The notes beneath the pieces are model-generated. The model did not search any database, had not been told where the DNA came from, and was given only the letters and a program-made list of their open reading frames with translations. DNA of 64,000 bases from Candidatus Dojkabacteria bacterium HGW-Dojkabacteria-1 (GTDB taxonomy: Bacteria; Patescibacteriota; Dojkabacteria; SC72): positions 588,360-652,359 of the forward strand of contig PHAO01000001.1 in the NCBI GenBank assembly GCA_002840365.1, read 5' to 3'. A program made the translations under genes and the position numbers. Shown here piece by piece: positions 5,645 through 59,084 of the stretch (positions are counted from its first letter, which is position 1; each line of letters opens with the position of its first letter).

Positions 5645-5739
5645 AAATTACCCCCTTAACATTTCGCCCTATAATATATAGAATAGGACTGCGATTGTTT
5701 TGGATGTATATGAATATTGTAATTTAATAGATAATTAGA

Positions 5740-13599: not shown

Positions 13600-14235
13600 A
13601 TGAATAAGAAGAAAATATTAAAAACACTCTCAAGGATATACCTAATAGGGGGAATAGTCCTTATCATCTTTGCTTTTGCAGCCCTTTCTGTCTCCTTCTA
13701 TCCAAATATCTGGTACGCATTAAGAGAGGAGGCCTCAGATGAAGATACGAATTCAATAGCACAAGTAGTAGAAAGGATTGATACCGAAGTAGAGGAAAAG
13801 AAAGAGAGACCACTTCCCCCACTAGATGAGAATCTACCGAAGGAGAATCAGATAAAGATAACTTCCATTGGAGTTGATTCTCAAATAATAGAGAATGAAG
13901 ACCCATACAAAGGTTTACTAAAGGGAATATGGATAGTACCAAACTATGGAATACCTTCTTCAAATGAACTACCAATAATAATTGCTGCTCATAGATATGG
14001 ATATACAAGTTGGTCTAGTCAATTCAGATATACAAGTTCATTCTATAACCTACCAAAAACAAAAGATGGAGATAGGGTACAAATAATATGGGAACAAAGA
14101 CTGTATGAGTATGAAGTTTATAAAACAGAAGATAATACACAGATTACAGACTATGAAGCAGATTTAATCCTCTATACATGTAGAATGTACAATTCCCCAA
14201 TTAGAGTTTTTAGATATTTGAACAGAGTCAACTAA
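13600..14235 (+). CDS. Sortase-family transpeptidase
   Basis: N-terminal TM anchor. Catalytic His in IIAAHRYGY, catalytic Cys in the LILYTC (TLxTC-like) motif, and a downstream Arg (RVFRY). The spacing fits the sortase fold. Confidence 0.6.
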   Translation: MNKKKILKTLSRIYLIGGIVLIIFAFAALSVSFYPNIWYALREEASDEDTNSIAQVVERIDTEVEEKKERPLPPLDENLPKENQIKITSIGVDSQIIENEDPYKGLLKGIWIVPNYGIPSSNELPIIIAAHRYGYTSWSSQFRYTSSFYNLPKTKDGDRVQIIWEQRLYEYEVYKTEDNTQITDYEADLILYTCRMYNSPIRVFRYLNRVN

Positions 14236-14240
14236 TCACC

Positions 14241-14277
14241 CCATAGTATTGCATGTTTGCCCATTATAAGATATAAT
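14241..14277 (+). promoter_or_regulatory. Sigma70-like promoter P1 with upstream CCCCATAGTA element: -35 TTGCAT (14249-14254), 17-bp spacer, -10 TATAAT (14272-14277)
   Basis: Read directly from the sequence. The same architecture recurs at 14585-14621 and 15537-15576. Confidence 0.5.
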
Positions 14278-14313
14278 GATGTTTGTAATTTAATTTGTTC
14301 TTTACAAATTCAA

Positions 14314-14541
14314 ATGAACAAGAAGATAAACTTCTTCTTGGTATCTATTCTTGCTATTGGATTTCTTGCACTTTTTAATACTCCAGTATTAGCAGATGGT
14401 TACAGTCCATACGAACCTCACATTCCAGAACCTACTGGTTTGATAGATGGTATGGTATTCAACATTGTTGCTGTAATCTCATACCTTTCAGGTATTGCTT
14501 CCATTGGAATAGCTAAGATTCTATCTAGTAAGATAGCTTAA
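14314..14541 (+). CDS. Small secreted/membrane-anchored peptide (75 aa) with a sorting-signal-like C-terminus; the ORF tool's alternative TTG start is at 14257
   Basis: The ATG at 14314 gives MNKKINFFLVSILAIGFLALFNTPVLA, a signal peptide. The short mature part DGYSPYEPHIPEPTG is followed by a hydrophobic stretch and the basic tail KILSSKIA. It lies immediately downstream of the sortase gene. Confidence 0.45.
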   Translation: MNKKINFFLVSILAIGFLALFNTPVLADGYSPYEPHIPEPTGLIDGMVFNIVAVISYLSGIASIGIAKILSSKIA

Positions 14542-14584
14542 CCAAGATCTATACATATAGGGTAGGGGACTTTATGTTCCCACC

Positions 14585-14621
14585 CTATAGTATTGTATAC
14601 TTGGCTAGTATTTGGTATAAT
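14585..14621 (+). promoter_or_regulatory. Sigma70-like promoter P2 with upstream CCCTATAGTA element: -35 TTGTAT (14593-14598), 17-bp spacer, extended -10 TGgTATAAT (14613-14621)
   Basis: Read directly from the sequence. Confidence 0.5.
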
Positions 14622-14677
14622 GTAATAGATCATTTGAAACTGCACCTTAAAAATTTCACACATAGTTATTAAAAGAA

Positions 14678-14720
14678 AGATAAATAGAGTAAGTTCTTAC
14701 TTTATCTATCTCTTTTTTAA
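14678..14720 (+). terminator. Rho-independent terminator: 15-bp stem (one A.C mismatch, one G.U pair) with a 4-nt loop, followed by TTTTTT
   Basis: The 5' arm agataaatagagtaa, loop gttc and 3' arm ttactttatctatct are followed by the T-run ctcttttttaa. Confidence 0.6.
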
Positions 14721-14945
14721 TTAAAAGAGAAGTTCTTTAACATAACTAAATATATATTTTAATGATATTTATATCTTAGATATATATCTTAGTTAAATAG
14801 GGTGGTGGATATTCTCCTTCCCTCTGTTGGTAAATTTAGTCAATTAAAAATAATTGGTTAAATCCTCCAACAGAGGTGCAACCGCAAGGCCAAAGAAAAT
14901 CCGTGCAGAAATGCATATAACAATTTTCCTTAAGGAGAAAATCTG

Positions 14946-15461
14946 ATGAAAAAGTTCTTGAAAGTCCTGTTCTTTGCCACCGTCGCTGTTGCTCTCATTC
15001 TGGTAGGCTCGGTTTTCGCAGCCCCCACGATTGCGAAGGCAGATGGCGGTTCCCAGCCCGAGTGCTTCTCCTTCTCGTTCGTGAAGGTATGCGTTTGGCC
15101 GCTGGGTGTCGAGACTGAAGAGGTCGAAACCGAAATCGTGGTTGAGGAAGATGCCGAAGAGGTTGAAACCGAAGAAAGCCTGGATATTCAGTCAAACACT
15201 TACTTTCCAGAGTACAGCTGTTCGGACCTGAATACCTGCCCAATGCGGTTAGTGCCGGAGGATATCTTTATCGTCGCTTACCCCCATGGGTGCGAGACGT
15301 TCAAAGTGTTCTTCCCGGGTGAAATCCTGGACTTCAACGGCTACGCCGAGATTCACGCTTACGCTATGTCCATTACAACCGGACCGCGGTTCAACATGAA
15401 TCTTTGGGTGCCTTCCCAGTTCCAGGACGTACACGCCTGCTACGCTTTCCCCACCCCGTAA
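14946..15461 (+). CDS. Secreted cysteine-rich hypothetical protein (171 aa) encoded in an anomalously GC-rich (~55-60% GC) segment
   Basis: Strong SD AAGGAG (14932-14937) sits 8 nt upstream of the ATG. Signal peptide MKKFLKVLFFATVAVALILVGSVFA. Six Cys residues and an acidic EEVETE repeat. Third codon positions are G/C-rich, unlike the rest of the window. Confidence 0.6.
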   Translation: MKKFLKVLFFATVAVALILVGSVFAAPTIAKADGGSQPECFSFSFVKVCVWPLGVETEEVETEIVVEEDAEEVETEESLDIQSNTYFPEYSCSDLNTCPMRLVPEDIFIVAYPHGCETFKVFFPGEILDFNGYAEIHAYAMSITTGPRFNMNLWVPSQFQDVHACYAFPTP

Positions 15462-15469
15462 AAAGAACT

Positions 15470-15527
15470 GAGCCTGGCTCGAGATCGCCGTTTCTAACGC
15501 GCACAACTCTCGAACCAGGCTCTTTTC
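15470..15527 (+). terminator. Putative intrinsic terminator: 13-14-bp imperfect stem gagcctggctcgag / ctcgaaccaggctc with a 25-nt loop, followed by TTTT
   Basis: Inverted repeat read directly from the sequence; the large loop makes it atypical. Confidence 0.4.
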
Positions 15528-15536
15528 CATTATATA

Positions 15537-15576
15537 CCCCATAGTACTTTAATATTTGATTAAAAAATGGTATAAT
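15537..15576 (+). promoter_or_regulatory. Sigma70-like promoter P3 with upstream CCCCATAGTA element: -35 TTTAAT (15548-15553), 17-bp spacer, extended -10 TGgTATAAT (15568-15576)
   Basis: Read directly from the sequence. It is followed by a ~300-nt untranslated leader before the next ORF. Confidence 0.5.
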
Positions 15577-15884
15577 GTAGGTATATTAAACATTAAAGAA
15601 TCTGCTCTTTAAAAGGATTTTATTCAATAAATATAAAAGATGTGTATAAGGGATTAACCCTAATTCTTTGTATATCTCTTTTATAGAGATAATGCTCTTT
15701 AAAATACCTTGTATTATGTGATTACTTAGGTAATCCATATATATACAAGTAGCGGTGAAATATATATCTCCTACCAAGTGGGCTGCATTAAGTTTTTAAT
15801 TCTCTCTTTAAAGATTTAATGCAGTACCCATTTGGGTAAAATTTAAAACCTCGCAAGAGGATTTTTCTAATAAGGAGATTGAAG

Positions 15885-16382
15885 ATGGAAAAGAATAGCG
15901 TCGGAACAATAATTTGGACAATTCTGGGCATTTTACTCCTAATATCATGTTGCTTTTTAAGCCTTTTTGTCCTTGGACTCAATGGCTTTAGCATGAGAAT
16001 TGGAAGTAGCGAGTTGGTTATCAACGAGCAAAAGATGGAAAATCCCGCAGTGGTTATCCATACTCAACAAGTTGAGCCAACGAGACCCACGATTGTACAA
16101 AATCCCACTCCGGTACCCCTTCGTATTTGCGATTACGATTACAACATCATGCCTATCGGGGTAGATGAATTCGATAATCGCCTAGCAGATAAGGGGATAA
16201 AGGTAACTGGAACGATAGCTGGTCCTGCGATTGTTAAAATCAATAAGGATCATATCGTGATCATTTATCCTGGAAATAGCTGGAAAGGGTCTGGTACCTT
16301 ATGGCAGTATGTTGGAGATTCCAAATGCCTTGAGGCACAAATTCAATACTTCGAAAAGGAGTCAAAAACATACATCAAATAA
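15885..16382 (+). CDS. Hypothetical membrane-anchored/secreted protein (165 aa); the ORF tool lists a TTG start at 15879
   Basis: SD AAGGAG (15872-15877) sits 7 nt before the ATG at 15885. N-terminal TM GTIIWTILGILLLISCCFLSLFVLGL. Moderately elevated GC (~42%). Confidence 0.5.
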   Translation: MEKNSVGTIIWTILGILLLISCCFLSLFVLGLNGFSMRIGSSELVINEQKMENPAVVIHTQQVEPTRPTIVQNPTPVPLRICDYDYNIMPIGVDEFDNRLADKGIKVTGTIAGPAIVKINKDHIVIIYPGNSWKGSGTLWQYVGDSKCLEAQIQYFEKESKTYIK

Positions 16383-27229: not shown

Positions 27230-28660
27230 CTATTGTAGTGGATGATTCTTCTTTACAGTTTCCTCTGCAAATTGCTCACTAGCATGTACATACCTTGTTG
27301 TAGTATCTAAGCTTTCATGCCCAAGAAGGACCTGCAGTGCAGCTGGACTTGCTCCTTGCTGAGCTAAGTATGTAGCATATCCATGCCTAAGACTATGTGC
27401 AGATGTAGGTATCTGAATTCCTAATCTTCTTCTGTACTCAGCAATCTTTTCTTGAAAATAGTTAGTTGATATTCTTGCATTTGATTTTCTACTTCTTAAA
27501 CCAGACAGAGGTATGAATAGGGCAGGGGAGTCGAATTTTTTTAAGAATCCATTTTTACGATAGTTTTCAACTAGAGATATATACTTCCTATTCTCTGAAT
27601 CAAAAACTTCTAAATTTAAACCTTCAGAAACATTCTCTGTATTTGTTTCACGATGTTTCATATCTTTATCCTTTTTTTCTAAACCCAGATCATGATACAA
27701 ACTATCTACAATACCTGGTTGTTCATCTTTAACCCTATCAGAAAAGGCATACTCTAGCCTTAACTTCAAATACTTATTTATCCATCCCAGTGCCCTTGGA
27801 GTTACAAATATTGTTCTTTCTTTTTTACCCTTACCAGTAATATACATCTTACCCTCAACATTTAATTGCTCTAAATCAAGACTAATGAGCTCTGAAATAC
27901 GCATTCCTGTTGCAAAAAGAAGCTCTAACATACATCTGTTTCTAAGTGCTACCTTTTCATCCTTCTCAAATTCCATTGGGCTTTCTATTAATCTAACCAA
28001 ATCTTCAAAAGATGCTACCTTTTTTATTTTCTTTTCACCCTTAACCATACTTATCGCATCTGGAGGTAAAGGTATTTCATAGTCCCATGAGATTCTAAAC
28101 TTAAGATATGATCTTAGTGCTGAAAGCATTCTGTTTACACTTCTAACATCTAAACCATTTTCACTTCGAGCTCTAGAATTTAGAGGTCTATCAAGTATAC
28201 CCAATGAGCCGTATACCTTACTGTAGATTTTGGTTAGGAAGTCATCCTCATATACCTCGTCAGTCTCTTTGAGGTACTCATCCAGATTTTTAGATTCCTC
28301 AGAAGGTGTATTCATACCCTTTGAAATTTTCTGAGGGCTTACAGAGCCTCTGGCGGCCTCGCCTGCAACTAACCCTTTATCTAAGCCACTAATTGCATAT
28401 TCCTTCCTTATCCTATCCAAATCTTTAAGGTGATTTCCACTTCTAAGGTATCCTTTGTAGTTTGAAATGTCTTCTTTAGATACTTTAAGAAATTCAATAT
28501 TGTTGAAATGTAAATATACACCAAATATCGCTAAATCCCTTGCGTAATTAATAATGGTTTGCATACTGTAATTGTTGTTTTGCAAATCCAACAGAAACTT
28601 GTCCTGATCAGGTAGTTTAGGTATCTTCTCAAGTATTTCTTTTCTTCTTTTAATATCCAT
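27230..28660 (-). CDS. Tyrosine site-specific recombinase (phage-integrase/XerC-D family) with two large insertions
   Basis: Core-binding N-domain. Catalytic box I TGMRISEL, box II HSLRHGYATYL and the Tyr motif LGHESLDTTTRYVH. Length 476 aa versus ~300 for Xer proteins. Confidence 0.8.
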   Translation of the reverse strand: MDIKRRKEILEKIPKLPDQDKFLLDLQNNNYSMQTIINYARDLAIFGVYLHFNNIEFLKVSKEDISNYKGYLRSGNHLKDLDRIRKEYAISGLDKGLVAGEAARGSVSPQKISKGMNTPSEESKNLDEYLKETDEVYEDDFLTKIYSKVYGSLGILDRPLNSRARSENGLDVRSVNRMLSALRSYLKFRISWDYEIPLPPDAISMVKGEKKIKKVASFEDLVRLIESPMEFEKDEKVALRNRCMLELLFATGMRISELISLDLEQLNVEGKMYITGKGKKERTIFVTPRALGWINKYLKLRLEYAFSDRVKDEQPGIVDSLYHDLGLEKKDKDMKHRETNTENVSEGLNLEVFDSENRKYISLVENYRKNGFLKKFDSPALFIPLSGLRSRKSNARISTNYFQEKIAEYRRRLGIQIPTSAHSLRHGYATYLAQQGASPAALQVLLGHESLDTTTRYVHASEQFAEETVKKNHPLQ

Positions 28661-29122
28661 ATTTGTATATATTAAGCTTAAAAAATATATAAATCAAAGT
28701 AGGGGTTTTAAAATTTTTTTGAGGTATGAATAGATAGGGGTAAAAAAGAAAAAAGTAAGGAAATATTAATAGGAATACGCATTGTCATAATAAATATATT
28801 TAACATCTAATATTAATTACAAATCATAAGCCTTAAAGCTACTCCCCTGGGCCTTACATACAGAGTACCGCATATAAGGACGATTATACTCGGTTATATA
28901 TTACAGATAATCATAACATATTGCAACGGGGTATAGCAGTATACTCCTCCACCTAAATGCTCAATGAAAACAGACTTTAAGATTCATTCATATATTCCCT
29001 ATTTATTACTAACATACAGAAGAATGTTTTAGCACTTACTTATCCACACTGTTAAAACTATGGGACATGTGAAACTATGGGCTCTTTGTGACTACAGGCC
29101 CCTACCCCCTACTCTCATATAG

Positions 29123-43362: not shown

Positions 43363-43370
43363 TTACCCCC

Positions 43371-43407
43371 TTGACACAAATTAGCACTCGAGGCTATACT
43401 TTGCTAA
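43371..43407 (+). promoter_or_regulatory. Promoter (-35 TTGACA 43371-43376; -10 TATACT 43395-43400) overlapped by a CIRCE-like inverted repeat TTAGCACTC-N9-CTTTGCTAA (43381-43407)
   Basis: The left arm is identical to the CIRCE consensus TTAGCACTC. The spacer is 9 nt. The right arm keeps TGCTAA but has 3 mismatches versus GAGTGCTAA. It lies upstream of an Hsp20 gene. Confidence 0.5.
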
Positions 43408-43441
43408 TAAGTATCTATTTAAATTTTTAATTTAAATACAT

Positions 43442-52173: not shown

Positions 52174-52221
52174 TACGTAAACAGTTTACCAGTAAAAGGA
52201 TATTTTGGAAACAATGGGGGA

Positions 52222-52250
52222 GTAAAAAGGGGGCCATTAAGCCCCCTTTC
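52222..52250 (-). terminator. Rho-independent terminator on the minus strand: GGGGGC-TTAATG-GCCCCC followed by TTTTT
   Basis: Read directly from the sequence. Lies 3' of rpsR. Confidence 0.7.
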
Positions 52251-52270
52251 TTTATTAAATCATATTTAAG

Positions 52271-54802: not shown

Positions 54803-56635
54803 ATGAGATTAAACATATTAAAAATATTCCTCTTTTTAACAATCTTTAGCCTAAGCTATGGAATTGTCAGTGCACAATCCTACGATTTTTCAATATCAAA
54901 CAACACAACAATTCAATATACAACAGGAGATGAACATGTAACTGTTAAAACAGAATATATTAGAGAAGTAAGAAATAGCTCATATTACTACTCTACTCAA
55001 GGAGAAAAAGTTTTTCATATTCCTGATTTACCTAAAGCAAAACAGTATGAATTGGAATTGGAGAGACAATACAAGAGAGATTCTCTTAAGGTAACAGATA
55101 GCAATGGGAGGAGTATCTCATACTCTGTAGAAGAGTTGAATTTCGGAGAAGGTATATATGTAAAGGTTCCTAATTACAAACAAACAACATATGGTAATCC
55201 TTACAAAATATTTGTTGAATACAAGACTCATGATTTAGTAAAAAAGATTTACAATCATGTGGTTCTCATTGCTCCAGCTTTACATGAAGATACAGAGTTT
55301 CAACAGGTTGATAGCTCAAGTGGAACAAGAACATCTTTTTCATATGATTTAAAAGTCATAGTAGACAAGAATATTTCGGATATTGTTAAAGTCTTTCCTA
55401 CAAAATATACAACTCAAGAAGGAAAAGATACCACAATATATTCCTTCAGTTCACAAGAGAGGATTGGTAATTCTCCATATTTAGAATTTGGTACAAGTCA
55501 AATTTACAGATTTGAGTTAAGATACAAAACACCAAAAACAGATACTATTATTCCAGAGAAGTATTCCTCTATGCTTAAAGCTCTCTCAACCAATATATAT
55601 GAACTTTCTTTACCAAGAGAATTTGAAGAAACAAGTCAGAGAGTAAAAATAGAGGGTATATTTCCACAACCGAGTCAAATATACAAAGATATAGAGGGGA
55701 ATATATTAGCTAAGTTCGAAGTACCTGCAAACAAAAGCAGTGAGATATTCATTACAGGGTATATCTTTGTACAACAGGATACATTACAAAACCAAAGAGT
55801 CATACCTGATTTTCCATTAGCAGAGTATTTTGACCTCATATCAAAGGACAATGGTCTTAAGAAATACCTTACTCATACAAAATACTGGGAGGTGAATGAT
55901 TCATATGTTCAGCAAGAAGCTAACAAGATGCTTACAGAGAGTAAAACCTTTTTGGAACTTGTTAAGAATGATTACAAATATATAAATGACAGGCTTGAAT
56001 ATGATGAGAGTAAAGCAAACAGTGATAACGAAAGAATAGGAGCAAAAGCAGCATTAATGGGAGGTGGCTCTGTTTGTATGGAATATGCAGACTCTATGAT
56101 AGCAATACTAAGAGCACAAGGTATCCCCGCAAGGGCAGCATTAGGTTATTCAAACTTAAATACCCTTTCTAAAACTAATGAAGAAGGAAGTACAAGGCAT
56201 CAATGGGTACATATCTGGGTTCCTGGCTACGGCTGGTTGAGTGTAGATCCAACATATGAGAGTAACAATATGCTAATTGGACAAAATATAGAGAAAATAT
56301 TGTGGGAGACCTTTTACAATGAGGAATTGAGTAATATAAAGATATATTCTGCGGATAGAACAAGTAGTACAGACTTCTCTGACTATTCAGTTAAAGTCTT
56401 TGCAGTTTACGAAGTACCAAATATTGAAGAACTATTAGATTATTCAGATATACAATCTGTTCAAGAAAAGAATATTACTGCTATCGATACACTTAATACT
56501 TTTGTAAAAACAACAGCACTGGGGAAATCATTAGTAATATTACTACCTATCCTCTCAATCCTACTTGTCTTGGTTCTCGCTCTCTCTTTTGTTACTTACA
56601 GTATTAGGAGACTTAAATCTCGTAAAGTTTCTTAA
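54803..56635 (+). CDS. Transglutaminase-like (cysteine-protease-fold) domain surface protein with N-terminal signal and C-terminal TM anchor
   Basis: Signal peptide. Transglutaminase core GGGSVCMEYADSMIAILRAQGIPARAALGY (catalytic Cys), followed by His/Asp. C-terminal TM LVILLPILSILLVLVLALSFV. Confidence 0.6.
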   Translation: MRLNILKIFLFLTIFSLSYGIVSAQSYDFSISNNTTIQYTTGDEHVTVKTEYIREVRNSSYYYSTQGEKVFHIPDLPKAKQYELELERQYKRDSLKVTDSNGRSISYSVEELNFGEGIYVKVPNYKQTTYGNPYKIFVEYKTHDLVKKIYNHVVLIAPALHEDTEFQQVDSSSGTRTSFSYDLKVIVDKNISDIVKVFPTKYTTQEGKDTTIYSFSSQERIGNSPYLEFGTSQIYRFELRYKTPKTDTIIPEKYSSMLKALSTNIYELSLPREFEETSQRVKIEGIFPQPSQIYKDIEGNILAKFEVPANKSSEIFITGYIFVQQDTLQNQRVIPDFPLAEYFDLISKDNGLKKYLTHTKYWEVNDSYVQQEANKMLTESKTFLELVKNDYKYINDRLEYDESKANSDNERIGAKAALMGGGSVCMEYADSMIAILRAQGIPARAALGYSNLNTLSKTNEEGSTRHQWVHIWVPGYGWLSVDPTYESNNMLIGQNIEKILWETFYNEELSNIKIYSADRTSSTDFSDYSVKVFAVYEVPNIEELLDYSDIQSVQEKNITAIDTLNTFVKTTALGKSLVILLPILSILLVLVLALSFVTYSIRRLKSRKVS

Positions 56636-58121
56636 TATTAATTGCCTTAACACCATCCTCCATCCTATCTTGCGTAGTTGCATAAAGGGTCATCAATGTT
56701 TCTCCTTTCTTTACCTTATCCCCTGGCATTTTCTCAATATATATACCTGCATCCTTAATCTTTGGAGTTCCAAGAGCTCTTGCTATCTCTACTATCTCTC
56801 TCGTACATAAGTATTTAATCTCAAAATCCTTAGGAGCTTTTACTTCATATGTCAATTCTCCAGGTATTAATTCTTCTGATTTAACAACCTTCTTTGCTCC
56901 TTGTGCTTTGGCTATTTCCCAAAATTTCTCAAGTGCCATTCCAGAATCCAATAGTTCTTGAGCAACTTTTCTACCCTCCCCCTTCTTTGCCTTATCATTA
57001 TGTTCAAAGATTTCTGCTGCCATACCAAGAACGACCTCTTCCATACCCTGTGGACGTTTCTCACTTCTTTCTAAAACTCTCAAACAATCTCTCATTTCTA
57101 ATACAGGACCAACACCATTACCATCTGGTCCTTTCACAACTCTTTTGAAAGTTACACACTTTATACCAAACTGAGCAAAGAGTTTCTCAAACTCTCTTAC
57201 TAAAAATTCTAAATCATCGGGTCTCTCCAATTTAGTTCCTTTACCATATGGAAGATCAATTAATACTGATGTCACTCCAACAGCTATCTTCTTAGCAACA
57301 ATACTTACTAGTACCTTCTGAAATTCTTGAATCTTTAAAGATCTCTCTACATTGATAATCTCATCATCCGCAGGGGCTAAATACAATGAACCTCCCCATA
57401 TCATACATGCTCCAGTACTCTCAACAACCTTGTATACTTTCTTTTTAGGTAAAGCTACAGGCATTACAGTCTCTAATATGTCTGTTGTACCAGCTGGAGA
57501 TGTAATTGCCCTTGTGGAACTATTAGGTACTACAAGGTCGTTAGCTGCTAAGATTGGAACAAGTATAGGGGTTATACCTTTACCTGCGGTACCACCGATG
57601 GAATGTTTATCTACTACTAAGTCTTTGTTGTTTTTGATGAATTTAAAATCTAATATATCTCCCGATTCGGCCATACCCTTGGTCATCCATCGTATTTCAT
57701 CTTCGTTAAAACCGGGGTTAAAAAATGTAGAAACAAAAAATGCTACTTCAGTCTCTTTAAGCTTTCTAGATCCAATATCTACCATAATTGAGAGGAGTTC
57801 TTCCTCGTTTAGCCTCTGACCTGACATCTTTTTCTTGATAGCTTCAAGTGATTTACTTGATTTAGGTAAATCTATGAGTACCTTGGCATGCTCAGGTATA
57901 TGATATTCATCAGGAATTTCCTCATACAGACCCACTTCTCCTACACTTACCTTGGTATCTGTTATTATAACTTTTACGTAAAGCTCAATATCCCTATATC
58001 CAAGCAAAACTATCTCCCCTTCATGTATACCAAGGTCATCAGCATCCTTCTGATGGACGATTATGAATAGATCTTTACCTGCTCCTAGGTCAATTTTTTT
58101 ACTCTTAAGGTATAGGGCCAT
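56613..58121 (-). CDS. AMP phosphorylase / thymidine phosphorylase family (archaeal-type DeoA with ~85-aa N-terminal domain)
   Basis: The glycosyl-transferase family 3 region DKHSIGGTAGKGITPILVPILAANDLVVPNSSTRAITSPAGTTDILE is present. At 502 aa with an extra N-terminal domain, it resembles archaeal AMP phosphorylase. Confidence 0.7.
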   Translation of the reverse strand: MALYLKSKKIDLGAGKDLFIIVHQKDADDLGIHEGEIVLLGYRDIELYVKVIITDTKVSVGEVGLYEEIPDEYHIPEHAKVLIDLPKSSKSLEAIKKKMSGQRLNEEELLSIMVDIGSRKLKETEVAFFVSTFFNPGFNEDEIRWMTKGMAESGDILDFKFIKNNKDLVVDKHSIGGTAGKGITPILVPILAANDLVVPNSSTRAITSPAGTTDILETVMPVALPKKKVYKVVESTGACMIWGGSLYLAPADDEIINVERSLKIQEFQKVLVSIVAKKIAVGVTSVLIDLPYGKGTKLERPDDLEFLVREFEKLFAQFGIKCVTFKRVVKGPDGNGVGPVLEMRDCLRVLERSEKRPQGMEEVVLGMAAEIFEHNDKAKKGEGRKVAQELLDSGMALEKFWEIAKAQGAKKVVKSEELIPGELTYEVKAPKDFEIKYLCTREIVEIARALGTPKIKDAGIYIEKMPGDKVKKGETLMTLYATTQDRMEDGVKAINIKKLYEI

Positions 58122-58139
58122 ATTTCTGTACTATTTAAT

Positions 58140-59084
58140 TTAAGACTCGAAAAGCCATGAGTATTTTGCTCTAACTACATCTGCTATTTCTTTAGGTTTT
58201 AATATACCAAATTCGGTCAAGAAACCTGTAATGAGATAATTGTCTACAATCTCAAAAGCAGGATTGTATATTTGTAGTTCCTTTGGTGCGTCATGCCACA
58301 ACTCCCTATCTTCTCTTACTTCAATAGTTAGTTCGTCTACTCCGATAACAGGATCTACCTTTAAAAGTGGTGAAACAACATAAAGAGGTTTACTCGCATG
58401 ATACGAAGACATACCAATACCCCAACTCCCTATCTTGTTTATACAGTGTCCTTTCATCGTGATTTGATCACACCCAATAAAGACACCATCTATTGGTACA
58501 GAACCCCTGCCAATTACAAAAGACTCGGCTGCACTATCTGCTATCAAAGTAGTAGATATTCCCCCTTCTAAAAGGCTTTTTGCAGTCTTGTGCCCTTGAA
58601 ATAGAGGTCTAGTTTCAGTACAAACAGCATCAAATGAGTCTTTTCCTTGCGCAATTCCTTTTATAACAGCAACAGCGGTAGAAGAGTGACAATGGGTTAG
58701 TATATTTTCTAAAAATCTAACATGAGGAACACAATTTTCTATTATTGCTCTCTTACTATCAGAAATCATAAAGAGATAGTTATCACAGTAATCCTCAAGT
58801 GTCTGTTTCATACCATCAATAGTATGTAAATCAGAGACCTTCTTTTTGTACATATGTTCTACAAATCTAACACCATTTCTAGCTAAAGGCTCATTCAATC
58901 TTGCATTCGCCAATCTATTACCTACTTCTACCAAATCTTTGTAAAACACGTCCAAATCAGTAACTTCTGATTCTTCTATGAAAGTCTTCATTCCTTCGAG
59001 AGTTGCGATAGCAACATTAGTAGCACCCTGGATGTTCAAGTCTTTTATATCTTTTTCTATTTCTAATATCTTTTTTACTTCCAT
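58140..59084 (-). CDS. Ribose-1,5-bisphosphate isomerase (eIF-2B alpha/beta/delta-like family, e2b2)
   Basis: The eIF2B/MtnA-family N-terminus IQGATNVAIA and the C-terminal segment GCDQITMKGHCINKIGSWGIGMSSYHASKPLYVV both match the family. Adjacent to the AMP phosphorylase. Confidence 0.6.
   Translation of the reverse strand: MEVKKILEIEKDIKDLNIQGATNVAIATLEGMKTFIEESEVTDLDVFYKDLVEVGNRLANARLNEPLARNGVRFVEHMYKKKVSDLHTIDGMKQTLEDYCDNYLFMISDSKRAIIENCVPHVRFLENILTHCHSSTAVAVIKGIAQGKDSFDAVCTETRPLFQGHKTAKSLLEGGISTTLIADSAAESFVIGRGSVPIDGVFIGCDQITMKGHCINKIGSWGIGMSSYHASKPLYVVSPLLKVDPVIGVDELTIEVREDRELWHDAPKELQIYNPAFEIVDNYLITGFLTEFGILKPKEIADVVRAKYSWLFES

Follow-up and report, generated by a model that had tools for sequence, protein, structure and literature searches.

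The 64,000-nt stretch analysed here (hereafter the window) comes from Candidatus Dojkabacteria bacterium HGW-Dojkabacteria-1 (contig PHAO01000001.1, positions 588,360 to 652,359), and its central feature is a short sequence, R-CCC-Y-ATAGTA, that precedes three predicted promoters (P1, P2 and P3). We find that this motif is a cis-element of σ70-type promoters, characteristic of Dojkabacteria, WWE3, Saccharibacteria and Microgenomates within the candidate phyla radiation (CPR, Patescibacteria). An initial annotation of the window had suggested a regulator-binding or 'UP-like' element, after the upstream (UP) element of strong bacterial promoters. The first part of this suggestion agrees with our data, as the motif is non-random, coupled to promoters and very probably a protein recognition site, but the second part does not, since R-CCC-Y-ATAGTA is not A/T-rich.

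Three predicted promoters in the window carry the motif

The window is chromosomal, has a GC content of 34% and contains gyrB, gyrA, ruvABC, dnaB and ribosomal-protein genes. CCCYATAGTA occurs in it three times on both strands together, always on the plus strand (14239–14248, 14583–14592 and 15537–15546), whereas shuffled versions of the window held 0.29 copies on average and none of 100 shuffles held three. Tolerating one mismatch gave extra matches at the chance level only. The 8-mer CC[CT]ATAGT has five copies, and all five are intergenic in a window where intergenic DNA amounts to about 3.6 kb of the 64 kb. The motif copies and the promoters next to them are the following.

14238–14248, plus strand: motif copy 1, A-CCCCATAGTA, flush with the P1 −35
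14249–14277, plus strand: P1 core promoter (predicted), −35 TTGCAT at 14249–14254, 17-bp spacer, −10 TATAAT at 14272–14277
14582–14592, plus strand: motif copy 2, A-CCCTATAGTA, flush with the P2 −35
14593–14621, plus strand: P2 core promoter (predicted), −35 TTGTAT, 17-bp spacer ending in TGG, −10 TATAAT at 14616–14621
15536–15546, plus strand: motif copy 3, A-CCCCATAGTA, 1 base from the P3 −35
15548–15576, plus strand: P3 core promoter (predicted), −35 TTTAAT, 17-bp spacer ending in TGG, −10 TATAAT at 15571–15576

All three promoters thus have the previously proposed order of motif, −35 hexamer, 17-bp spacer and TATAAT, with the motif at about −46 to −36. CCCCATAGTA abuts TTGCAT at P1 and CCCTATAGTA abuts TTGTAT at P2, while at P3 a single C stands between CCCCATAGTA and TTTAAT, making the gap to the −35 one base larger. 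The starts first reported for the copies were right for the third and 2 nt too high for the first two. As in other σ70-type promoters, a TTGACA-related −35 and a TATAAT-related −10 lie 17 ± 1 bp apart, and the extended −10 (TGn) noticed earlier at two of the three promoters is indeed present at P2 and P3, as TGG, and absent from P1. An A precedes CCC and a G follows TATAAT in every case. P1 and P2 are 76% identical across 42 nt. The view of P1–P3 as three independent promoters had to be given up, as P2 and P3 are collinear copies of one promoter-plus-leader unit and probably stem from one event. Because this unit is duplicated, P2 and P3 should probably not be counted as separate evidence for the motif, whereas P1 stands on its own.

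The motif is conserved at orthologous promoters

The gene downstream of P1 directly follows a sortase gene (13600–14235) and encodes a 75-aa protein.

14314–14541, plus strand: 75-aa gene; signal peptide, PYEPHIPEPTG, membrane helix (C-terminal anchor) and basic tail

Orthologues of this gene were present in 11 fetched loci from about eight species; their products are 71–84 aa long and all have PYxPHxPxxTG and a membrane helix. The motif lies upstream of 11 of 11, flush with the −35 hexamer (register A, below) in eight loci and next to the −10 (register B, below) in three. At these promoters the motif and TATAAT are invariant, and the −35 hexamer (TTGCAT, TTGTTT, TTGTCA, TTGCCT, TTGACT, TTGATA or TTGCAA), the spacer and the upstream DNA are variable. 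The motif is more strongly conserved across species than the −35 hexamer itself. Its fourth base at P1 is C in the window and T in three strain contigs (L002–L004), a polymorphism that matches the degenerate Y of the motif. The nearest relatives of the window among the fetched loci are two loci labelled Dojkabacteria (L006 and L065).

Distribution across genomes

We scanned one genome per species (185,579 species, 596 Gb) with the pattern CCCYATAGTA-Y-T-K-N20-21-TATAAT and obtained at least 122 matches in at least 119 loci, the counts per genome and per lineage being lower bounds as well. Taxon labels were taken as deposited, and several of the fetched loci are orthologous, so they are not fully independent. 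Among the matches listed, 69 are labelled CPR/Patescibacteria, 27 have uninformative or doubtful labels and 26 are scattered in other phyla. The CPR labels are Saccharibacteria (21), WWE3 (17), Dojkabacteria (14) and 'Patescibacteria group' (10), followed by Gottesmanbacteria (3), Woesebacteria (2), Levyibacteriota (1) and Parcubacteria (1). Judged by its information content, the pattern should match about 70 times by chance in the full 596 Gb. In a collection of this kind, CPR genomes account for a few percent of the species and about 1–2% of the bases, which puts the enrichment in CPR at no less than about 50-fold, a figure that depends on this general estimate of the CPR share.

The listed CPR matches also have features that the pattern left free. 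The three bases after TTG are A, C and A in 71, 60 and 50% of them, which completes TTGACa, and a purine precedes CCC in about 90%, with no conservation further upstream. In contrast, the matches in other taxa have a mean −35 score of 3.7 of 6 (4.8 for CPR) and are not followed by boxA, an element described below; they look like chance matches. The motif is restricted to certain lineages, and a random genome-wide frequency with no association to promoters, which would have spoken against the initial annotation, is clearly contradicted. A collection of 2.9 million viral contigs gave just two matches, both chance-like, and we rejected a phage origin of the motif for this reason.

A number of loci with consensus motif promoters (L010, L017, L018, L035, L046, L049, L054, L080, L086, L094, L100, L102, L110 and L116) come from metagenome-assembled genomes that bear the labels 'uncultured Gammaproteobacteria' or 'Pseudomonadales', which we regard as doubtful. 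One locus labelled Gammaproteobacteria encodes a sortase (as a fusion protein), and in a PDB search the GyrA of another was about as distant from E. coli GyrA as from the GyrA of other bacteria. The Gammaproteobacteria labels are probably wrong.

The motif occupies fixed registers

The motif is coupled to promoter hexamers in a small number of fixed registers. In register A its last base is at −36, so that it adjoins the −35 hexamer with an offset of 0 or occasionally ±1. Other copies stand within the spacer, at about −25 to −11: in register B, CCYATAG runs directly into TATAAT with a good TTGACW 17–18 bp upstream, and in register B′ CCCCATAGTG stands in the spacer and is followed by TGn and TATAAT. 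Registers A and B′ are 20 bp apart, and one promoter (L122) has motif copies in both A and B.

Copies of CCYATAGT in the fetched CPR loci that the strict pattern had missed form an unselected sample. By our reading of their contexts, about 24 of 41 are promoter-associated and fall into these registers, and outside CPR the count is 0 of 12. In 245.7 kb from 18 Dojkabacteria-like metagenome loci that were anchored on RuvB, we counted 43 copies of CCYATAGT (14.5 expected from base composition), with 35 beside the DnaA box of the recombinase gap described below, seven at other promoter-like sites and one elsewhere; we read 42 of the 43 as promoter-associated. In the CPR loci fetched with the strict pattern, the motif or a sequence close to it is present, by our own count, at roughly two-thirds of the remaining strong promoters. 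Three further promoter regions of the window, at 5645–5739, 43363–43441 and 52174–52270 (minus strand), have a run of five Cs at or one base before the −35 (ttaCCCCC-TTAACA, ttaCCCCC-TTGACA and CCCCCA-TTGTTT), with the ATAGTA half absent. This run may be a degenerate or related element.

Genes downstream of motif promoters

The three promoters of the window had been described as driving small secreted-protein genes or leaders, and the 75-aa (P1), 171-aa (P2) and 165-aa (P3) products fit this description. The wider proposal of a small regulon of secreted-protein genes does not hold, as the motif spans several CPR classes and the downstream genes are mixed. We looked at 75 downstream proteins from loci labelled CPR or doubtfully labelled. 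Pfam domains are missing from roughly four-fifths of them (an estimate from the family tally), and the others include six family-2 glycosyltransferases, a trypsin-like protease, LiaF-like, LemA, sortase and DUF11 proteins, an LPXTG protein and ribosomal protein L33. Other driven genes are the Xer recombinase gene, many orphans and, probably, the yebC–ruv recombination operon, the last by synteny only. N-terminal hydrophobic segments are not enriched (30% of downstream proteins and 28% of background open reading frames, ORFs). Most promoter regions in the window lack the motif, including those of the S6–SSB–S18 genes, hsp20 and tRNA-Leu.

Some motif promoters are followed by boxA, whose consensus is GYTCTTTAANA (PMC5725501). 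Of 87 motif promoters in loci with CPR or doubtful labels, 17 have a boxA core in the next 100 nt, at a median of 24 nt (typically about 20–25) past the −10, and the corresponding control counts were one upstream and four on the reverse complement. The boxA boxes had led us to suspect rRNA or tRNA promoters, a reading we rejected as no rRNA was found in 18 boxA-bearing loci. No rRNA or tRNA gene stands directly downstream of a motif promoter in any fetched locus.

Motif copies at the putative promoter of the Xer recombinase

On the minus strand, CCCATAGT occurs twice (29057–29064 and 29074–29081), 17 bp apart, in the 462-nt gap upstream of a tyrosine-recombinase gene. These are the two reverse copies near 29.06 kb that had been placed upstream of an integrase gene; they are real, are conserved in 13 related loci (RuvB 58–80% identical to that of the window) and belong to the putative promoter of the recombinase gene.

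29026–29081, minus strand: Xer promoter region (putative); two direct motif copies, −35-like TTAACA at 29050–29055, perfect DnaA box in the spacer at 29040–29048, TGCTAAAAC at 29026–29034
28867–28894, minus strand: dif-like site ACCGAGTATAA-TCGTCC-TTATATGCGGT, 28 bp (11-6-11), given as context and distinct from the motif
27230–28660, minus strand: Xer-family tyrosine recombinase, 476 aa, unusually long; Pfam Phage_integrase

In an alignment of this gap from 14 sequences there are two to three direct motif copies with a strict 17-bp period, and the intervening bases are variable. The proximal copy is flush with the −35-like hexamer, and a conserved TGCTAA(T) reads as an extended −10. Such tandem arrays are peculiar to the Xer promoter, as only scattered pairs were seen elsewhere. 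The DnaA box (TGTGGATAA / TTATCCACA, 29040–29048) is the single perfect one in the window and is conserved in all 13 related loci. In a WWE3 locus (L115, minus strand, ~955) a motif copy is fused to a DnaA box.

The dif-like site lies about 130 nt beyond the predicted Xer promoter. Its arms are symmetric at 9 of 11 positions, and in the 14 sequences most of both arms is invariant and the central spacer varies (TCRYCC). The best NCBIfam matches of the recombinase are XerD and XerC, below the curated cut-offs; the cumulative G−C maximum of the window is at 27.2 kb and gene orientation converges there. Because of these features, the integrase of the initial annotation and the dif-like site are best read as the Xer recombinase of the chromosome and its dif site at the replication terminus, and this region is probably the replication terminus and the locus of chromosome-dimer resolution. 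A replication origin at 29 kb was considered and rejected, as there is one perfect DnaA box and both the skew and gene orientation point to a terminus.

Two other places in the window may be mentioned. The hsp20 promoter (43363–43441) reads CCCCC-TTGACA-18-TATACT with a CIRCE-like inverted repeat, TTAGCACTC-N9-CTTTGCTAA, which suggests that hsp20 may be under HrcA control. At 56613–59084 there are adjoining genes for AMP/thymidine-phosphorylase-like and IF-2B-family (ribose-1,5-bisphosphate isomerase-like) proteins, which we take to be the nucleoside-salvage pair often reported in CPR genomes.

The P1 gene and the P2 and P3 units

The P1 transcript would have a short 5′ untranslated region, and the gene is followed by a hairpin that reaches into the second motif copy.

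14297–14307, plus strand: boxA-like GTTCTTTACAA in the short P1 5′ untranslated region, one mismatch to GYTCTTTAANA
14557–14588, plus strand: hairpin ATAGGGTAGGGGA / TTCCCACCCTAT, whose 3′ arm is CCC(T)AT of motif copy 2

The 75-aa protein looks like a sortase substrate from its sequence features, and no Shine–Dalgarno (SD) sequence precedes its ATG. The 71–84-aa family (the window, L006, L011, L022, L031, L065, L089, L092, L114 and L117) shares a signal peptide, PYxPHxPxxTG, a helix and a basic tail and has no match in Pfam or NCBIfam. It adjoins sortase in the window and in a related species (L031), and in several other lineages a family-2 glycosyltransferase gene lies downstream. The exposed part left after sorting would be just about 15–20 residues. 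The hairpin is probably the terminator of the 75-aa gene, overlapping P2; a hairpin with different stems is found at the same position in related species (L031, L077 and L117).

P2 and P3 each precede a long leader and a gene for a secreted or membrane-anchored protein.

14622–14945, plus strand: P2 leader, 324 nt, fold z-score −7.2; boxA-like box 14641–14651; H1 with U-tract 14668–14721; perfect boxA 14732–14742; AT-rich H2; ATATTCTCCTT 14809–14819 (anti-SD-like); H3 14821–14876; SD 14932–14939
14946–15461, plus strand: secreted-protein gene of P2, 171 aa with signal peptide, 53% GC in a 34% GC genome
15465–15527, plus strand: terminator-like hairpin and T-tract (inverted repeat I14), 3′ of the variable P2 gene
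15577–15884, plus strand: P3 leader, 308 nt, paralogue of the P2 leader, fold z-score −8.0; perfect boxA 15604–15614; H1 15632–15685; perfect boxA 15694–15704; H3 15783–15824; SD
15885–16382, plus strand: P3 gene, 165 aa with N-terminal membrane helix (membrane-anchored)

The two units are collinear over about 310 nt (repeats D2, D10 and D17), and their genes have weak similarity, the P3 protein being 29% identical over 49 aa to the product of a P2-type gene of a related species. The units are probably a tandem duplication that included the gene. Dojkabacteria UBA5209 lacks the entire P3 unit. Arrays of motif promoters are also seen elsewhere. A WWE3 locus (L020, minus strand, ~767–2169) has them at intervals of about 460 nt; its units share the upstream sequence GGGGAGCC and so are repeats of a promoter with a small gene, comparable to P2 and P3. 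Two loci of one Patescibacteria genome (L039 and L083, 128–144 kb) have an array with intervals of roughly 0.6–3 kb. There are four to six motif promoters in these arrays, and the first downstream ORF, where checked, is small (60–110 aa).

Both leaders fold far better than shuffled versions, as the z-scores show. The first boxA-type box lies about 20–30 nt past the −10 and the second follows H1. Perfect GYTCTTTAANA occurs at 14732, 15604 and 15694, and these are three of the five copies in the window, where 1.1 are expected. In an alignment of seven leaders from five sequence types, H1 is kept by compensatory changes, and ATATTCTCCTT, which is complementary to the SD sequence and could pair with it, is conserved. 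Leaders of this ~310-nt type are found at 14622–14945 and 15577–15884 of the window and in L002, L006, L031, L065 and L077. Rfam at gathering thresholds detected tRNA-Leu alone in the window, and nothing credible appeared for 14200–16000 at E-values up to 10, so that the leaders belong to no described RNA family. We regard the ~310-nt leader as a candidate new cis-regulatory leader in Dojkabacteria, which may act by Nus-dependent processive antitermination across H1 or by attenuation, possibly with sequestration of the SD sequence. A scan of the window proteins, covering most ORFs of 110 aa or more, revealed no nusB.

Other samples of the same locus are 100% identical to the window through P2 and most of the leader, and again from the stop codon on, and between these flanks, from about 14823 to 15450, identity drops to only about 60% and indels appear. 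Strains share 62% identity over the first 55 aa of the P2 protein and have unrelated C-terminal domains, as in a polymorphic surface or effector protein with swapped modules. An integron-type cassette array was rejected as an explanation, as the recombinase is 13 kb away and the motif lies at neither end of the variable segment. In two strain contigs (L002 11276–11941 and L004 8097–8774) public assemblies call a 221–225-aa ORF on the wrong strand over the GC-rich variable gene; the true gene is the plus-strand ORF with an SD sequence and a signal peptide.

What may read the motif

Binding of a protein to the motif, activation or repression, and use of the three promoters are things that we infer from these patterns. 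The reading we favour, tentatively, is that a sequence-specific DNA-binding protein conserved in these lineages docks on the motif. The docked protein would act on initiation while touching RNA polymerase; in register A it would occupy the position of a class II regulator, with its centre near −41, and may contact region 4 of sigma. At the spacer registers and the Xer array it would behave more like an operator-bound factor, and a single site without symmetry suggests that it probably binds as a monomer, as do MarA and SoxS. We prefer a separate protein because the motif occurs in several registers, forms an array at the Xer promoter and is absent from most housekeeping promoters in the window. 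Tandem or inverted repeats, which could have indicated a general dimer site, were rejected, as direct partner copies are scattered apart from the Xer promoter, and where P2-type promoters have an inverted copy upstream, a terminator stem is the better explanation. Several observations weigh against a separate protein. We found no cognate protein, and the window proteins include no obvious transcription factor except a YebC-family protein. The hexamers are near consensus and the motif is very tightly coupled to the −35, both of which would be expected equally if the polymerase itself recognised the motif. The site is non-palindromic and single at nearly all promoters (tandem at Xer only), whereas sites of a classical regulator are more often palindromic or repeated. 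Finally, three registers are hard to fit to one activation geometry, and the downstream genes share no common function, as those of a specific regulon usually would.

The motif could instead be read by RNA polymerase directly, through a diverged α C-terminal domain (α-CTD), an extended primary sigma factor or a general factor that stays bound to the polymerase. It would then raise promoter strength like an UP element, though with another sequence, and we hold this to be possible but doubtful. The proximal UP subsite falls on the same span, −46 to −36, more than 90 promoters have the motif 0 or 1 nt from the −35, and the −35 and TGn registers, being 20 bp apart, are separated by about two helical turns; the frequency of the motif among other strong promoters of the same CPR loci (roughly two-thirds) and the functional mixture downstream, with rpmG and, by synteny, the yebC–ruv operon, also fit. 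Against it stand the base composition of the motif, which is not A/T-rich, its occurrence in the spacer against the −10, where α-CTD is not known to bind, its absence from most window promoter regions (S6–SSB–S18, hsp20 and tRNA-Leu included), the lack of any rRNA or tRNA gene directly downstream of the motif promoters found, and the 17-bp tandem array at the Xer promoter, which looks like an operator. In a broader form, several CPR classes would share a promoter grammar with R-CCC-Y-ATAGTA as a third core element, read by a lineage-specific part of the basal machinery (α-CTD, sigma or a new general factor); this too we consider possible but doubtful.

The other explanations have far less in their favour. 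It is very unlikely that the motif works at the RNA level or as a boundary, with CCCC as the 3′ terminator arm of the upstream gene and the motif marking a terminator–promoter junction (an insulator). Such an arrangement does exist at P2 and its orthologues, where the motif is a 3′ hairpin arm whose stem differs in sequence between species, but P1, P3 and most of the at least 122 matches have no complementary upstream arm, the logo is flat upstream of the purine, the ATAGTA half is conserved as much as the CCC half, and the spacer copies cannot be terminators. We find it similarly improbable that the copies are arm-type or accessory sites of the 476-aa Xer-like recombinase, those at promoters marking boundaries of exchangeable cassettes. 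The tandem copies with their strict 17-bp period lie about 160–210 bp from the dif-like core beside the recombinase gene, strains differ by replacement of the P2 gene segment, and a related species has no P3 unit; however, the motif is not at the breakpoints of the variable segment and is thus not a recombination site. This segment starts about 230 nt past the motif, inside the leader, and ends before the terminator, leaving the motif and promoter in a flank of 100% identity, over a hundred other copies are tied to promoter hexamers and not to recombinase genes, and the proximal Xer copy is itself in the −35 register. Shared ancestry alone, in which local copies are identical through promoter duplication and the motif has no function of its own, would account for the collinear paralogues P2 and P3 and for the 76% identity of P1 and P2 over 42 nt, yet it is contradicted by the data across lineages: the motif is kept across species and classes while adjoining bases diverge, and kept between strains when its Y position changes. 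We give this explanation almost no weight. Nor is a divergent promoter at all credible, in which TACTAT-RGGG on the opposite strand would be a −10 with a G-rich discriminator, or a T7-like start (cf. CACTATAGGG), for antisense transcription. The resemblance is one of sequence only, to σ70 discriminators and T7-type promoters as we know them; the opposite strand has no −35-like or TGn element at the required distance (logo positions 27–32 are not TGTCAA), the position of the motif is fixed relative to the forward hexamers, and no single-subunit RNA polymerase was found in the window.

Relation to known systems

The UP element is A/T-rich (proximal AAAAAARNR), is read in the minor groove by α-CTD and lies between −38 and −59, with its proximal subsite at −46 to −38. 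Like the UP element of the E. coli rrnB P1 type, our motif in register A lies directly upstream of the −35, at the same coordinates, in strong σ70-type promoters; unlike it, the motif is C-rich with an ATAGTA half, occurs also in the spacer beside the −10, and was found at no rRNA promoter. Class II sites (λ cI at OR2/PRM, CRP and FNR at −41.5, the marbox) resemble it in having a centre near −41 and a tightly fixed distance to the −35, and the marbox of MarA, SoxS and Rob is likewise asymmetric with a defined orientation. CRP, FNR and cI sites, in contrast, are dyad-symmetric. Promoters that depend on class II regulators usually have a weak −35, whereas many motif promoters have TTGACA, and the motif spans several class- or phylum-level lineages, unlike a single class II regulon of related functions. 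To our knowledge the operator consensus sequences of LexA, NrdR, CIRCE, DnaA and others do not match the motif, which serves as a lead rather than a test.

The cyanobacterial HLR1 element, which is bound by RpaB, is similar in that one conserved motif occupies several fixed promoter positions at many unrelated genes. It differs in that it consists of two directly repeated octamers and that its binding protein is a response regulator, whereas our motif is as a rule a single 10–11-mer. The positional distribution of HLR1 has been analysed (PMC6525291; bioRxiv 10.1101/443713). In sequence, the P2 and P3 leaders resemble Nus leaders of the rrn and λ type in having perfect GYTCTTTAANA, also after a hairpin. 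In contrast to rrn boxA leaders, they precede secreted-protein genes and two boxA flank a terminator-like hairpin. Neither the motif sequence nor promoter motifs of CPR bacteria gave anything relevant in a full-text literature search, which is no proof of novelty as subscription literature lies outside its coverage.

Transcription control in CPR/Patescibacteria is almost unstudied; these bacteria are mostly uncultured and have tiny genomes with few recognisable regulators. If the motif is indeed a third core element, part of CPR initiation differs from the E. coli and Bacillus models. If confirmed, the motif would offer a sequence handle for promoter calling in thousands of metagenome-assembled genomes, a defined bait for the binding protein or for direct tests with RNA polymerase, and strong promoter parts for genetically tractable CPR systems. 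It also marks a set of genes (orphans, genes related to the envelope and genes that vary between strains) whose expression is probably strong or coordinated, with a bearing on the episymbiotic lifestyle, and it points to an as yet undescribed factor in CPR gene control.

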